From NCBI GenBank assembly GCA_965140885.1, contig CBCSKA010000003.1, forward strand, positions 1-46,994: a DNA stretch of 46,994 nucleotides, given 5' to 3'. The translations under genes and the position numbers were made by a program. Shown here in pieces: positions 796 through 9,279 of the stretch (its first letter is position 1; the number at the start of each line of letters is the position of its first letter). Below the pieces are notes generated by a model. It searched no databases. It was not told the DNA's origin and was given only the letters and a program-made list of their open reading frames with translations. The DNA comes from Legionellaceae bacterium. GTDB taxonomy: Bacteria; Pseudomonadota; Gammaproteobacteria; CBCSKA01.

Positions 796-3204
796 ATGCG
801 TGGAATTTCGTTAAAACCCGTCAGTGCTTTCATAAATCGAGCACTGAACAACCTCAATGAAGGTTGGTATAAAACCAAAAACTGGTTTTCACGTCTTTTT
901 AACAAAAATTCACAACCGATTGATGTCAAAAAACAACAAGCGGTAAAAACCCAAGAAAGCTTTACTTTTTTACAGCATGCTTATCAGTATGGTGATAGTA
1001 AAACACTCCTATGGATAGCTGATGCTTATCTGTCTCTTTCATTAGATAAATTAGCCATCAGCTTTTTAAAAAAAGCAATGGCAATATTTCCCCAAGAACC
1101 ACGCTTAAGTGAAATCACGTTACGAGACCGTCTTTATTATCGTTTTGGGCAGTATTACGAAGGAAAATTTGAAGAAAAAAAAGCCATCTACTGGTATTCG
1201 AAGCTTGATAAAAAAGAGAGCGCTTACTACGACTTAGCTAAAATGGCATTAGGTAATATCTATTTAGCAAAAGCGATTGATAATAGCCCCACATTCGATA
1301 CGCTGTATTCTAAACAATACCAACAAAAAGCCACGAAGTATTTTTGGGATGCAGCAATTGAAGGAAGTGACGATGCTGAAAAACTCTATTACTACACCCA
1401 ACATGGGATAGAAGGTGAACTAAAATACCAAGAAGCCCAAGAAAAATTACGAAAAGATAATCAATTCATTGAAAAAGAAAAAAAGAGCAAAAGACTACAA
1501 CGTATCACCACATTACGTGACCGGATAGAAACAACGCTAGAGGCAATAAACAATCAATCCCACTCGTTAAAAAATAGCATTATAACTATTCACAAGGAGT
1601 TTATAGCGATGTTACCTCAACAAAATGCGGATAATGAATTAACTATTATAGAAGATAACAAATCTCAAGAACGCGAAGAAATAATAACACAACCACTGAA
1701 TCAGGCGCCTATACAAGATAAAGAATCGTTAAAAACACAAATGAATATCTTTAAGAAGCGGTACCAAGAAGGTGAAAAAAATATCATTAGCTTGATTGAT
1801 AATCATTTTGAATCACTTCTTGTGAAAGCAACCCAAAGTGATTTTTACAACAAAGTAGAAGCGCTTTTAAATCGCTATCAATCCGCTTTTTATTCCTTTG
1901 AAAACTATAACAGACGCAAAAATAATCCAAAGTGTGAAGATGCGATTGACAAAACCCTTTCAGATTTGAAATGTGCATTAAAAAACGCAAAAGAAGCAAA
2001 ATATGATGAACCGTTAGCAAAATTTTTGTTAAAAATAAAACAATTACCTGCTAATACAGGTTGTTCTCTGTCAGGGTTATACTGGATTAAAAATGGTTCG
2101 GATATTTTTAAGTTTTATAACTTTAGACAAAACCTCAATGCGATTTTAAAAGAATATAACGATGGCACACTGGCTGGAAATAGAATTAAAGGTGAAAACA
2201 ATCCACACGTAATTGAAATCAAAAAACAATATAAGGCACTCAAAAAAGAATTGGCTAAACTTGGGGCAACTGCTCAGCAAACGCATAATGAGATAGTAAC
2301 GCCACTGCTTGAAAAATTAACTAAAACACAACAAGAGCTGGAACTCTTTAAAAAAGAAGAAATCTATATAATTCTTGATAAAGAGAAACAAGGACTACAG
2401 CAAGAATTGAGAGAAGTAAAACAAGAAAATTCTGAATTGAAGGTAAAAATCACAAATGTAGAAAATGAATTAGTAACTCAAAAACAAAACTTTGAGCAGA
2501 AATTTAAACAAGAAAGACAAGAGCGTGCTTCCGAAAAACAAAGTTTTCAACAGGAATTAGTTTCTCAAAAACAAAACTTTCAACAGGAATTAGTAACTCA
2601 AAAACAAAACTTTGAGCAAAAATTCATACAAGAAAGGCAAGAACGCTTCATCGAAAAAAATACGTTAAAAGAAGATTTTTTGAAGAAAATCAAAAAACAG
2701 AAAGAAAAAGTAATGGATATTGACGAAAAATATAAACAGCAAGAACAAAGAGTAGAATTTTTAATAAATATTATGCTGCAACAAACAATACCCCATAACG
2801 AAATGACGAGTAATCAACCCCTAATTCAAGAAATAAGTAAAAAACCAGAATCCCATGATACTTGGATTTGTCCTATAACCCAACTAATTATGGAAGATCC
2901 CGTTATTGCTGAAGATGGGCATAGCTATGAGCGTATTGCTATTATGCAGTGGCTAGAACTTAAAAATATCAGTCCAATAACAAGACAAACTATTAGCGAT
3001 AAATTAATCACTAATTATGCGCTTAAAAACTCTATCGATGAATATCACGAAAATTGCAAAAAATGGGAAGTAGAACAAAACAGTATCCAAAGATCTTCTG
3101 TTGGCTCGTTACCTACTTTTTTTAACCATACCTATTCATCAAGCCGTATGGACAATCAATCTACATCTTCACAGCAAGCATCTACTAACAACAGACGATT
3201 TTAA
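796..3204 (+). CDS. U-box E3 ubiquitin ligase-like effector candidate (TPR/Sel1-like N-terminus, long coiled coil, C-terminal U-box)
   Basis: 802 aa. C-terminal WICPITQLIMEDPVIAEDGHSYERIAIMQWL...SPITRQ...LITNYALKNSI is a U-box signature. The central region is a K/E/Q-rich coiled coil. Confidence 0.85.
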   Translation: MRGISLKPVSAFINRALNNLNEGWYKTKNWFSRLFNKNSQPIDVKKQQAVKTQESFTFLQHAYQYGDSKTLLWIADAYLSLSLDKLAISFLKKAMAIFPQEPRLSEITLRDRLYYRFGQYYEGKFEEKKAIYWYSKLDKKESAYYDLAKMALGNIYLAKAIDNSPTFDTLYSKQYQQKATKYFWDAAIEGSDDAEKLYYYTQHGIEGELKYQEAQEKLRKDNQFIEKEKKSKRLQRITTLRDRIETTLEAINNQSHSLKNSIITIHKEFIAMLPQQNADNELTIIEDNKSQEREEIITQPLNQAPIQDKESLKTQMNIFKKRYQEGEKNIISLIDNHFESLLVKATQSDFYNKVEALLNRYQSAFYSFENYNRRKNNPKCEDAIDKTLSDLKCALKNAKEAKYDEPLAKFLLKIKQLPANTGCSLSGLYWIKNGSDIFKFYNFRQNLNAILKEYNDGTLAGNRIKGENNPHVIEIKKQYKALKKELAKLGATAQQTHNEIVTPLLEKLTKTQQELELFKKEEIYIILDKEKQGLQQELREVKQENSELKVKITNVENELVTQKQNFEQKFKQERQERASEKQSFQQELVSQKQNFQQELVTQKQNFEQKFIQERQERFIEKNTLKEDFLKKIKKQKEKVMDIDEKYKQQEQRVEFLINIMLQQTIPHNEMTSNQPLIQEISKKPESHDTWICPITQLIMEDPVIAEDGHSYERIAIMQWLELKNISPITRQTISDKLITNYALKNSIDEYHENCKKWEVEQNSIQRSSVGSLPTFFNHTYSSSRMDNQSTSSQQASTNNRRF
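2467..2645 (+). repeat. Intragenic coiled-coil repeats: 33-bp tandem unit and ~59-bp duplication
   Basis: caacaggaattagt(tt/aa)ctcaaaaacaaaacttt at 2548-2580 and 2581-2613; ELVTQKQNFEQKF.QERQER at 2467-2525 and 2587-2645. Confidence 0.85.
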
Positions 3205-3478: not shown

Positions 3479-4566
3479 ATGACCTATTCAATTGATTTTA
3501 GAAGACATGTATTAACCATTAAAGCGGAAGAGAATTTAAGTTTTGCAGAAACCTCATTACGATTTAAGATAGGCAAATCAAGCCTTGTGCGTTGGAGCAC
3601 ATGTCTTGGGCCTAAAATAAAGCGTGATAAACCTGCAACTAAAATTAATATGGCGTTATTGAAGCAGGATATACAGAGCTATACCGATAGTTATTATCAT
3701 GAACGAGCCCAACGTTTAGGCGTTAGTAAAACGGGAATTTATTGGGCAATAAAATGTATGGGTATCAGCTATAAAAAAAACGCTACAGCATCCCAAAGCC
3801 GACGCCGAACGGCGGTTATTAATTCAACAGAATTTAACGAATGATAAGTCTTCTAATCGTAAGATAATTTACCTGGATGAAAGTGTCTTTGCTCATGACA
3901 TGCCCCGTACCCATGGCTATTCTGCCAAGGGGAAACGGTGTTATGGCAAACATAACTGGAGTGCACGTGGCCGAACAAGTGTTATTGGCGCGTTACAGGG
4001 AAATACCTTCAACACTCAGTTTGTTTGATGGAATGATTAATGGAGATATTTTTGAAGGCTGGCTAGAACAAGATTTGATCCCGAAATTGCCAGAACGCAG
4101 TGTGGTGATTATGGATAAGGCAGCTTTTCATAAAAGACCCGCAACTCAAACACTACTCGACAAAGCAGGACATACCTTAATGTTTCTGCCTCCTTATTCC
4201 CCTGTTCTTAATCCTATTTAACATACGATAGTGTCTCCATTTTTGAGACCCCTTTTGGGACATCCAAGTCCCCAAAAGGGACAAAAATTGTCGACAAGTA
4301 TGCCTGCGGCAGCCCTGGCCGTCCTGCGTACGCTCGTTATGACACGACTAGGTGTCATAACTTCACTTCCACAAATGACTTGTCGACCGTTTTGTGGGCC
4401 TTATATTTTGCCTTCGGCAAAACATCCGGCACTACGGTCTACCAGGGACTATCGGCCTCGCTCCTTCGTCGCTTCCTTGGCCGACAGCGAATGGGCACAA
4501 GCTAAAGCAATTCGAAAACAACAACACCGTTCTATTTATGATCTATTTAAATACCATTGCCCGTAA
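3479..4566 (+). pseudogene. IS630 transposase pseudogene
   Basis: HTH ORF MTYSIDFR...; A8 slippery run at 3773-3780; YLDES and MDKAAFH motifs; an extra frameshift near 4005; LNPI* where the catalytic Glu codon is TAA (4219-4221); insertion at 4226-4489; then WAQAKAIRK. Confidence 0.9.
4226..4489 (-). mobile_element. 264-bp structured non-autonomous element, copy A1
   Basis: Reverse complement of 9016-9279 with 1 mismatch. Removing it restores cat aaa tgg (H-K-W) of the IS630 transposase. Confidence 0.88.
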
Positions 4567-5020: not shown

Positions 5021-5940
5021 TAGTGTTTTGATTTCTAAATGATTGATTGAAAGCAATGGTCAATAGCTCCAGCAAGAGTAGTAAATTGGGATATTATTTT
5101 CTTTATCTTTGCTTTTAGGTTAGCCCAGAACTTTTCAATAGGATTAAAATCTGGCGAATAAGGAGGAAGAAATAACAAGTGACATTGAGCGTTGGTTATT
5201 AATGTTTTAGTGCGCTCAGATTTATGAAACGCAGCATTGTCCATAATAATCGTGTAGCCAGGGCCTAAAGTTGGCAGTAGGAATGAGTCCAACCAGAAAT
5301 TAAAAAGATTAGTATCACACGTCCCCTGATAGCACAAAGGCGCGATAACGTTGTTATTGTTCAAACCAGCAATGAAGCTTTCCCTCGCAAAGCGCCTTCC
5401 CGAGACTTCACCCGCAACAGGTTGACCTCGTTTACCCCAGCCGTATTCTCGGGAGATAAAGCTATCAATGCCAGACTCATCAATATATACGCACTTTTCA
5501 TCACTGTATTTTAAACGCTCTACTAGGAACAGCTGACGCTTTTCTTCACTTCGTTCCGAATAGAGCGAGGTCTTTTTTTTCGTGAAATCTTAAGTCGAGA
5601 CAATGCTCGCCACACCCCAGATTCAGTCACTCCAAAATGAGCCGCTATTTCGCTTAAATAAGCATCTGGATGATTTGCCACATATAACTGAAGTAATTCA
5701 TCTTTCAGCTTATAGGGTAAATTTGCCCTTACAGTAGCAGAAACAGTTCCTAACTCTTCTTGCCTCGTTCTCCATCTTTGTATCGACGAGCGACTTACTT
5801 TAAAGAGTTCACAGGCAGATTTAATCAATCCTCCTGAGTTGATGTAGTCTAATACTAGTTTTCTTATATCTGTTGAATGACTCATAATAAATTTTATGAG
5901 TATATCACAATATGTAAGTCATTTTAAAATCAAATTACTA
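5021..5940 (-). mobile_element. IS630-family element, apparently intact (920 bp)
   Basis: Imperfect terminal inverted repeats tagtgttttgatttctaaatga / tcattttaaaatcaaattacta; TA duplication at 5019-5020 and 5941-5942. Confidence 0.93.
5035..5885 (-). CDS. IS630 transposase (two ORFs joined by -1 frameshift)
   Basis: HTH ORF 5523-5885; A8G slippery site at ~5572-5580; the -1 frame is open through YIDESG...IMDNAAFHK...PYSPDFNPIE (complete DDE). Confidence 0.9.
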
Positions 5941-6540: not shown

Positions 6541-6819
6541 TGCTGGAACACAAGGAAGCGAAGCGAGTGTGACAGCCCTCGCATCATCTGTAGGGCCGTA
6601 TGTTTTGTCGAGGTCTATGCGTTAGCATAGGCAAAGACAAAATAGAAGGCATACCGATACAGATAGAAAGTCACTGTGGTAGTTGTGTTGAACGATAAGT
6701 TCAACGCAACGAACGCAGGACTGGTGCGAGCCGCCGAAGGCACACTAGTCGCTAATTTTTTGCTCCTGAGGGGGACTTGGATGTCCCGTCAGGTTTCGTA
6801 AAAAATAGCGACTCTATCG
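6541..6819 (+). mobile_element. 279-bp divergent copy (B) of the structured element
   Basis: Shares blocks CAAGGAAGCGA, ATGTTTTG, CAAAATA.AAGGC, AAGTCA, ACGCAGGAC, GGGGACTTGGATGTCCC and terminal CTATCG with 9016-9279, in the same order. Confidence 0.82.
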
Positions 6820-8630: not shown

Positions 8631-9015
8631 TTTTTATCTTCCTTTTTTTTTGAATTTAGATTTTTACTATTTATTTTTTTAATTAATAAACAACAAATAG
8701 AAAGGAAAAAAAATAATTACTGCCAAAAAGAAATAGAGTCTATTTCTAAAAACTCCAAATAGCACATTGTCCTTATGTAACTATTTGTTTGAGTGAGTAA
8801 ACAGAGATAATCCTTATCATCTGTCTAGCAGTTTATTTAATTTTTATCCTTAACATCATCCTTAATGTTTGCTGCTTATAAGTTAAGTATGTAATTGATT
8901 AATTTATTTACCAGGGGGTTTTTATTCTTAAATTTGTAAGATAATAGCTATTATGTTGATACCTGGAAATTTTATGAAAATTTAATTAACAAGAGAGGGG
9001 GGGTAGGCATTCACA

Positions 9016-9279
9016 CGCTGTCGGCCAAGGAAGCGACGAAGGAGCGAGGCCGATAGTCCCTGGTAGACCGTAGTGCCGGATGTTTTGCCGAAGGCAAAAT
9101 ATAAGGCCCACAAAACGGTCGACAAGTCATTTGTGGAAGTGAAGTTATGACACCTAGTCGTGTCATAACGAGCGTACGCAGGACGGCCAGGGCTGCCGCA
9201 GGCATACTTGTCGACAATTTTTGTCCCTTTTGGGGACTTGGATGTCCCAAAAGGGGTCTCAAAAATGGCGACACTATCG
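9016..9279 (+). mobile_element. 264-bp structured non-autonomous element, copy A2
   Basis: GC-rich island in AT-rich intergenic DNA; 263/264 identical to the reverse complement of 4226-4489. Confidence 0.88.

Follow-up and report, generated by a model that had tools for sequence, protein, structure and literature searches.

The 264-nt element at positions 9016..9279 of the window, i.e., of the whole analysed stretch of 46,994 nt, is a mobile repeat without a gene of its own. It inserts precisely, without target site duplication (TSD), three bases after a C, and it has a conserved, strand-specific fold; a folded, strand-specific single-stranded DNA (ssDNA) intermediate is well supported. Based on sequence comparison we propose that host topoisomerase I (TopA) may integrate the folded single strand, a reading that we consider about as likely to be right as wrong. 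The loci of the window concerned are the following.

9012..9015, forward strand: target tetranucleotide C-A-C-A with the C at -4, belonging to the flank and not to the element
9016..9279, forward strand: complete element, 264 nt, no ORF, CGCTG...CTATCG, 53% GC versus 33% GC for the genome
4226..4489, reverse strand: second copy with one mismatch relative to 9016-9279, inserted in an IS630 DDE gene
6541..6819, forward strand: divergent copy of a second subfamily (sister copy), 279 nt

The element forms a GC-rich island in AT-rich, intergenic surroundings, and a comparison across copies placed the divergence of the flanks exactly at both ends of 9016-9279, so that the boundaries claimed in the earlier note are exact. 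In the source genome of the window (G000; 1.62 Mb, 158 contigs, 80% complete), 47 full copies, 31 left-end-only matches, and 34 right-end-only matches were detected at an identity of at least 85%. The partial matches are mostly situated at contig ends, and the element breaks many contigs of this assembly. Ten of the 47 full copies are identical to the copy at 9016-9279; the spread of the element is thus recent. The second subfamily is represented by 7 left ends. For the copy at 4226..4489, the corresponding empty site is present elsewhere in G000, with neither duplication nor loss. Two decayed IS630 elements occupy window positions 3479-4566 and 5035-5885, one of which is split by an element copy. 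Old, diverged fragments on contigs C64, C132, and C13 are mostly restricted to the 3' part, which may simply mean that the conserved 3' half is easier to detect. In sequencing run X1, contig depth amounts to approximately 800-1000 over the element and to 3-7 in its flanks; this exceeds the expectation from roughly 80 assembled copies, and depth is here not a copy number. Window positions 796-3204 encode a U-box protein of 802 aa with coiled repeats, for which three paralogues exist in the genome; together with many LRR/TPR-type proteins it suggests a eukaryote-associated bacterium.

All 78 left junctions in G000 carry a C at -4. The same holds for 261 out of 272 copies in G044, a complete genome of which 2.65 of 3.45 Mb (77%) were read. 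In the second subfamily the C is found in 6 of 7 left junctions, the exception being the copy at 6541-6819. Inspection by eye gave a C at -4 for all 18 readable 5' ends of seven further genomes (2 of the 20 loci have no readable 5' end), for 5 out of 5 copies from four named plasmids, and, within 49 kb of plasmid DNA from Piscirickettsia salmonis, for 9 out of 10 copies; for single-copy families the element boundary was set by homology. Considering the wider context in G000, position -5 is A/T in 96% of the insertions, T occurs at -2, -1, and +1 in 52%, 60%, and 56%, respectively, G is depleted, and the right flank shows an A/T lean only. In G044, C accounts for only 3% at -5, the enrichment of T at -5, -2, -1, and +1 is milder, and C is somewhat raised at -3, -6, -7, and -1, unlike in the published TopA motif. 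Overall, the insertion context reads (T/A)-C-N-(T/A)-T^(T/A). The target words in G000 comprise 24 different CNNN tetranucleotides with T at -3 in 25 of 78, CTTG being used in 2 of 77 and GTTC in none.

At seven clean empty-site paralogues, three from G000 and four from G044, the flanks meet exactly, without TSD and without deletion. Furthermore, when the element is taken out, frames free of stops reappear only with shifts of 0 or 3, namely in 57 of 229 cases versus 6-16 out of frame in G044 (at least 100 codons), and in 8 of 47 cases versus none out of frame in G000 (60 codons). A 3-nt duplication of the flank is found in 0 of 47 copies in G000 and in 12 of 229 in G044 (4.0 expected), a small excess, and 4-nt flank matches in G044 amount to 1 versus 0.8 expected. 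The possibility that the terminal CG represents a target duplication was rejected by the empty sites. Two G044 copies are inserted in the tail of an older copy of a different haplotype, after TCCCC; an interpretation of tandem copies as rolling-circle dimers was dismissed, since the partners differ in haplotype.

Considering the fold, P1 is followed by the P2-P3-P4 junction, P5, P6, and a short tail.

9017..9057, forward strand: hairpin P1, starting at nt 2, with three G-T wobbles, a C-A-N-G-G-A internal loop, and a c-GAA-g mini-hairpin as cap (9037-9041)
9058..9192, forward strand: three-way junction core P2-P3-P4, with covariation
9058-9064 with 9186-9192, forward strand: P2
9066-9070 with 9116-9120, forward strand: P3, with a distal GAA-loop hairpin at 9087-9095
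9127-9184, forward strand: P4, with conserved GTCA/GCAGGAC and a GNA/GNA internal loop
9195..9203, forward strand: mini-hairpin P5, GCC-GNA-GGC, N being A, C, G, or T in relatives; missing in some families
9209..9273, forward strand: long subterminal hairpin P6, loop TTGGAT at 9238-9243
9274..9279, forward strand: 3' tail CTATCG, its first C (C259) invariant in the alignment of 22 members, the remainder differing by family

Compared to shuffled sequences, the fold reaches z-scores of -5.35 (forward) and -5.00 (reverse strand) with DNA parameters and of -6.43 and -4.81, respectively, with RNA parameters, and in each combination of strand and parameters 0 out of 200 shuffles fold as well. Since both DNA and RNA scores lie far beyond the shuffles, energy alone cannot separate DNA from RNA. 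The strand running from YGCTG to CTATCG, to which the earlier note had assigned the polarity and the G-T wobbles, is indeed the more stable one in 22 out of 22 family members with both parameter sets, and the paired columns contain 74 G-T versus 21 A-C cells, a count tilted in favour of G-T because the structure was predicted on the CGCTG strand. Double-sided changes were observed at 37 of 51 consensus pairs, and 90% of the cells are paired compared to 74% in shuffles and 36-47% in slid controls, where the 22 aligned members are related and not independent and the consensus structure was derived from the same alignment.

Four loop types had been named before. Of these, c-GAA-g (at 9037 and 9089) and c-GCA-g (at 9197) are present in 9016-9279, whereas c-GTTA-g and c-GATAA-g occur at 6620 and 6693, within the sister copy, and are found nowhere in 9016-9279. 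A census of C-closed stems with at least 3 pairs in the 22 related members, in which non-MFE stems were also counted, yielded 32 GNA loops (GAA 15, GCA 7, GGA 5, GTA 5) among 56 triloop calls and 14 GNNA loops (8 GNRA, 6 not) with no UUCG among 58 tetraloop calls; on the reverse strand, the same census gave neither GNA nor GNNA loops. Loops of the type c-GNA-g are a trait of DNA rather than of RNA. The long subterminal hairpin described in the earlier note is real, and so is the fixed 6-nt tail, whereas CTATCG itself is fixed in G000 only and relatives end in CTTG, CCCGR, CTCG, TTACG, and others. A C-(A/T)-N(0-1)-G-G-A motif recurs family-wide at window positions 9026-9031, 9178-9183, and 9237-9242, corresponding to the P1 loop, a P4 strand, and the P6 loop, and possibly represents a repeated protein contact.

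The orientation relative to replication, a check that had been suggested along with the assumption of a folded ssDNA intermediate, revealed a pronounced bias. The CGCTG strand is located on the G-rich strand in 226 of 272 copies in G044, and in 190 of 229 with stricter end matching (p 5e-25). This bias is present in all six gene-orientation classes, i.e., for in-gene copies in sense (43:7) and antisense (49:17) as well as in all intergenic classes, despite the fact that C-words are slightly rarer on the G-rich strand of G044. On the short contigs of G000, 35 of 47 copies show the same orientation. Judging from GC skew, the G-rich strand most likely is the lagging-strand template, on which the active strand of IS608 is located as well according to the accessible text of two papers (PMC5027513, PMC3971601). 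In total, 116 of the 229 G044 copies lie within predicted genes, 50 in sense and 66 in antisense, i.e., without a sense bias. Loop types, covariation, replichore bias, and the lack of a reverse transcriptase gene in the complete genome G044 thus support the ssDNA intermediate that was assumed in the beginning. Circle junctions were not found in contigs of 8 runs, which drop rare forms and derive from standard libraries that miss ssDNA, and one RNA run with two depth-2 contigs, one of them continuing into the flank, is uninformative on a discrete transcript.

Relatives of the element were identified by BLAST in 16 of 399 other genomes of the class, in one of them (G307) over merely 26 nt. A covariance model built on the 3' 162 positions matched 18 of 149 other genomes of the class (G039 left out) and 3 of 150 in a phylum-wide sample, two of them weakly. 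Named plasmid carriers are Legionella antarctica, Methylobacter, Methylomonas, Ca. Methylocalor, and Piscirickettsia salmonis, and Piscirickettsia plasmids alone contain 3,687 places on 310 records. Ten copies occur in 49 kb of a Piscirickettsia salmonis plasmid (L280, NZ_CP039242.1), several of which overlap genes annotated as hypothetical protein that may be repeat artefacts. Across the family, the length ranges from 250 to 290 nt and the whole fold is conserved. In the 2.65 Mb read of G044, 272 full and 6 partial copies occur, and no series of 5'-truncated copies was observed there. One viral contig bears a copy; no match was found among phages or in 5,426 E. coli genomes. Rfam gave no match to the elements, while neighbouring introns were detected. 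In the literature searched, which excluded supplements and most subscription papers, no description of the family was found. The repeat family is active, gene-disrupting, and apparently unnamed.

According to the proposed TopA route, the element strand would become single-stranded on the lagging-strand template and fold. At the P1 foot, TopA would cut the C-N-N-N flank that has been retained, giving a 5'-phosphotyrosine link to the first base of the element, and the 3' end would be released by a step outside the present model. TopA would then cut once more, in ssDNA at a new (not C)-C-N-N-N site, and the ensuing cross-religation would result in an insertion without duplication, and replication would restore the donor, so that copies multiply. 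The conserved junction core may serve to bind or stall TopA and in this way favour the joining of separate molecules. Going further, one could imagine that the three-way-junction fold represents a natural DNA aptamer capturing host TopA, whose cut-and-rejoin cycle would bring about transposition without a transposase in a widespread gene-less class that has reached hundreds of copies per genome in many gammaproteobacterial families, an extension that we put forward tentatively and would rate just under an even chance.

The target site is what points to TopA. E. coli TopA has the in vivo motif TCNTTA/T, i.e., a single C and an AT-rich patch, cuts 4 nt downstream of the C, and remains on the 5' end, with cleavage being raised upstream of active genes (accessible text of PMC9352719). 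A C at -4 is described as general for bacterial TopA and as set by R169 (accessible text of PMC3467081 and PMC9960139), and the exchange R169A switches the selectivity to A at -4 (PMC3467081, same limitation). The insertion target has the features of such a type IA cut motif on the transferred strand, a C at -4 in T/A-rich context, and the insertion logos agree in kind with the published TopA motif, the comparison being one with the accessible motif text and not with the logo. The suggested link to TopA is a motif match, in which a single C carries little information. The chemistry of TopA would fit as well: the enzyme requires ssDNA, does not create a duplication, and acts with a polarity that suits a target word 5' of the element. 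The R168-R169/D172 pattern is retained in host TopA; due to Y and F in place of R173 and Y177 of E. coli, its specificity is assumed.

TopA is near universal (139 of 151 genomes), thus the presence of the enzyme cannot discriminate; the patchy occurrence of the element nonetheless counts against TopA. By eye, the best TopA frames reach at least 820 aa in 42 of 139 genomes and in none of the 17 element carriers scored, whose frames measure 713-808 aa (G044 and G125 had no score and G039 was excluded), with a cut-off chosen after seeing the data and kin genomes that are not independent; the element may need one TopA subtype. In G044 itself, topA (G044:C1:428786-431100) reads with several frameshifts after approximately residue 402 in the assembly. 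We presume that this is an assembly indel error, as indel errors are also suggested by the C-run of the element, which varies between 3 and 4. Further observations count against TopA. Intergenic copies in G044 are found between divergent (18), convergent (20), and co-directional (75) genes without divergent enrichment (p 0.69), in contrast to the raised cleavage by E. coli TopA upstream of active genes, and HUH proteins are available in trans, namely RAYTs in G044 and relaxases in G000. The right end is unlike a plain TopA cut: families ending in CTATCG or CAATCG have an A at -4 from the end, those ending in CTTG, CTCG, and CCCGR have a C there, and the conserved C at the P6 foot is usually situated 6 nt from the end (4-5 nt in two families). 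No published TopA-moved element was found, supplements and most subscription papers lying outside the search.

HUH enzymes are the basis of the main rival explanation, in which a transposase or relaxase acts in trans on a non-autonomous single-strand element (peel-and-paste or rolling-circle) with C-N-N-N as target rule; we consider it conceivable, yet rather unlikely. The lack of TSD and terminal inverted repeats (TIRs), hairpins at both ends, a 5' target word, and the lagging-strand-template bias are traits of IS200/IS605 (accessible text of PMC5027513 and PMC3971601), and several families end in CTTG or CTCG, which are IS91 cleavage words. Y1 genes were detected in 12 of 16 (including G307 with its 26-nt match) and in 2 of 5 searched carrier genomes, and Y2_Tnp in 12 of 33 element-carrying genomes, none shown to be linked to the element. 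Nevertheless, no HUH family is common to all carriers, six of which (G208, G130, G086, G343, G186, and G046) have neither Y1 nor Y2; Y2_Tnp is likewise missing in G000 (80% complete), G044, G178, and G047. Known HUH transposases use a target of 4-5 bases, whereas the element has only one fixed base, and conservation of the whole internal fold is unlike a deletion derivative. All HUH genes examined beside copies are either insertion targets or equipped with their own ends, and no examined copy flanks or encloses such a gene as its end. Copies in G178 and G047, for instance, interrupt Y1 genes. The only Y1 gene of G000 (L001:229-657, C25) encodes an IS200 TnpA with its own hairpin ends and a Tyr replacing the first HUH histidine. 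The relaxases of G000 include two relaxase-like proteins of approximately 2000 aa (C15, C143). RAYT genes are missing in G000, and those of G044 have their own, separate GTAG REPs. No ORF-bearing version of the element was found in G000 (80% complete) or in the 77% of G044 that were read.

The earlier note had regarded the element as an HUH-type substrate with IS91-like ends. This assignment is not supported, as no examined HUH gene is linked to the ends, CTATCG lacks conservation, targets follow another rule, and Y2 is missing in several carriers. For the CTATCG that the earlier note placed in the IS91 terminus, the main text of the IS91 paper PMC13181058, figures not being covered, gave no occurrence. 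Several candidate partners were rejected. A plasmid copy beside an IS91-family tnpA and an integrase resembled oriIS and turned out to be a whole element inserted in the 3' end of the gene; in the sister plasmid, the same element sits in a Tn3 gene. The match near a Y2 gene in G107 is an internal fragment lacking both ends, and the G044 copy near a RAYT gene is a mere neighbour in an element-dense genome. A 3'-only match located 1.9 kb downstream of a Y2 transposase gene on the same strand in G506 (G506:C12:2355-4851) is still a candidate. IS110, of which G000 contains one partial gene, was discarded as well, since the target specificity of IS110 is incompatible with the target of the element.

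Another host or mobile enzyme acting on DNA, for which a type IA topoisomerase encoded on a plasmid, a nuclease of DNA repair like UvrC, or an unknown recombinase would come into question, or else a partly own catalytic fold, appears improbable. A second type IA topoisomerase is encoded in G000 beside conjugation genes (C23:11145-22000), the 3' end step is unexplained, and a simple binding site would not require a conserved core of this size. However, the C23 topoisomerase lacks the R169-type motif, topoisomerase III has another selectivity (accessible text of PMC3467081), G178, G269, and G186 have just one type IA gene, and the only GIY-YIG match of G000 is a UvrC-sized frame of 627 aa.

An RNA route, i.e., movement of a retroelement or ribozyme whose structured RNA enters the lagging-strand template by reverse transcription or reverse splicing, we regard as very improbable: the RNA folding score of -6.43, the conserved three-way junction, the 8 GNRA loops, and reverse transcriptases in 11 of 16 carrier genomes would be in agreement with it, but G044 with its 272 copies in the part read is devoid of a reverse transcriptase, GNA triloops outnumber GNRA loops 32 to 8 with UUCG at 0, no Rfam match or EBS/IBS-like target exists, and neither a sense bias of in-gene copies nor 5' truncation is seen in G044. 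Some group II introns insert in a fork-linked manner, and G000 contains two such introns with reverse transcriptases (ends of C61 and C109, and C105), one of which appears to harbour an element copy inside its 5' part, with contigs breaking at the copy. Where copies lie beside reverse transcriptase genes, they have inserted into group II introns or close to them, and a partnership with these genes was rejected.

If TopA is the enzyme, the element would be mobile DNA that needs no transposase, recombinase, or reverse transcriptase of its own, a new route for jumping DNA, and its fold would be a large natural structured DNA under covariation that acts on a core enzyme. It could then provide a chemistry for inserting ssDNA without scars and a TopA ligand of a new type. 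Oligonucleotides and a single purified protein would suffice for a direct test of the TopA reading, for which the R169A switch gives a clean prediction. Whatever the enzyme, the family disrupts genes and assemblies, with 272 copies in 2.65 Mb of one genome and 3,687 places on Piscirickettsia plasmid records.

Compared to known systems, the element works like a peel-and-paste element, yet it fails membership in IS200/IS605, IS91, REP/RAYT, MITEs, and group II introns. With IS200/IS605 (IS608) it shares the lack of TSD and TIRs, strand-specific hairpins, a target word directly 5', and the active strand on the lagging-strand template (accessible text of PMC5027513). In contrast to the guide-read tetranucleotide of that group, such as TTAC, its target has one fixed base; P1 starts at nt 2 without a guide spacer, no TnpA parent shares its ends, and, unlike ORF-less IS200/IS605 derivatives, it keeps the whole fold of 250-290 nt. 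Similar to IS91, it lacks TSD, probably involves an ssDNA intermediate, and has a subterminal palindrome, and some relatives end in CTTG or CTCG. However, the target of IS91 is CTTG/GTTC, in which the T at position 2 is conserved and which lies next to oriIS (accessible text of PMC13181058), whereas the target preference of the element, with its 24 CNNN words and T at -3 in 25 of 78, lies at the end opposite CTATCG. Furthermore, the most active carriers lack Y2, and where IS91-type genes lie close to copies, they either serve as targets or are bounded by unrelated ends. Like REP/RAYT systems, it is non-coding palindromic DNA that forms ssDNA hairpins and is spread through the genome, but it is a 264-nt unit with precise ends, half of the G044 copies (116 of 229) lie inside predicted genes, the GTAG-tagged palindromes flank the G044 RAYTs separately from it, and G000 has no RAYT. 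The bacterial MITEs QMITE1 and QMITE2 of Coxiella are likewise short, ORF-less, structured, and of high copy number; they are described with TIRs and direct repeats (accessible text of PMC5896051), and by this description are set apart from the element, which has neither, its ends not being complementary. From group II introns and other retroelements it differs by the lack of an Rfam match and of intron domains, and by its abundance in G044, which has no reverse transcriptase. In Xer-dependent IMEXs, e.g., the CTX phage, a strand-transfer enzyme of the host links folded ssDNA to the chromosome. The combination of folded ssDNA and a host enzyme, for the element a proposal only, is thus common to both, but IMEXs carry genes and use XerCD at a single dif site, whereas the element carries none and occupies hundreds of sites of low specificity.
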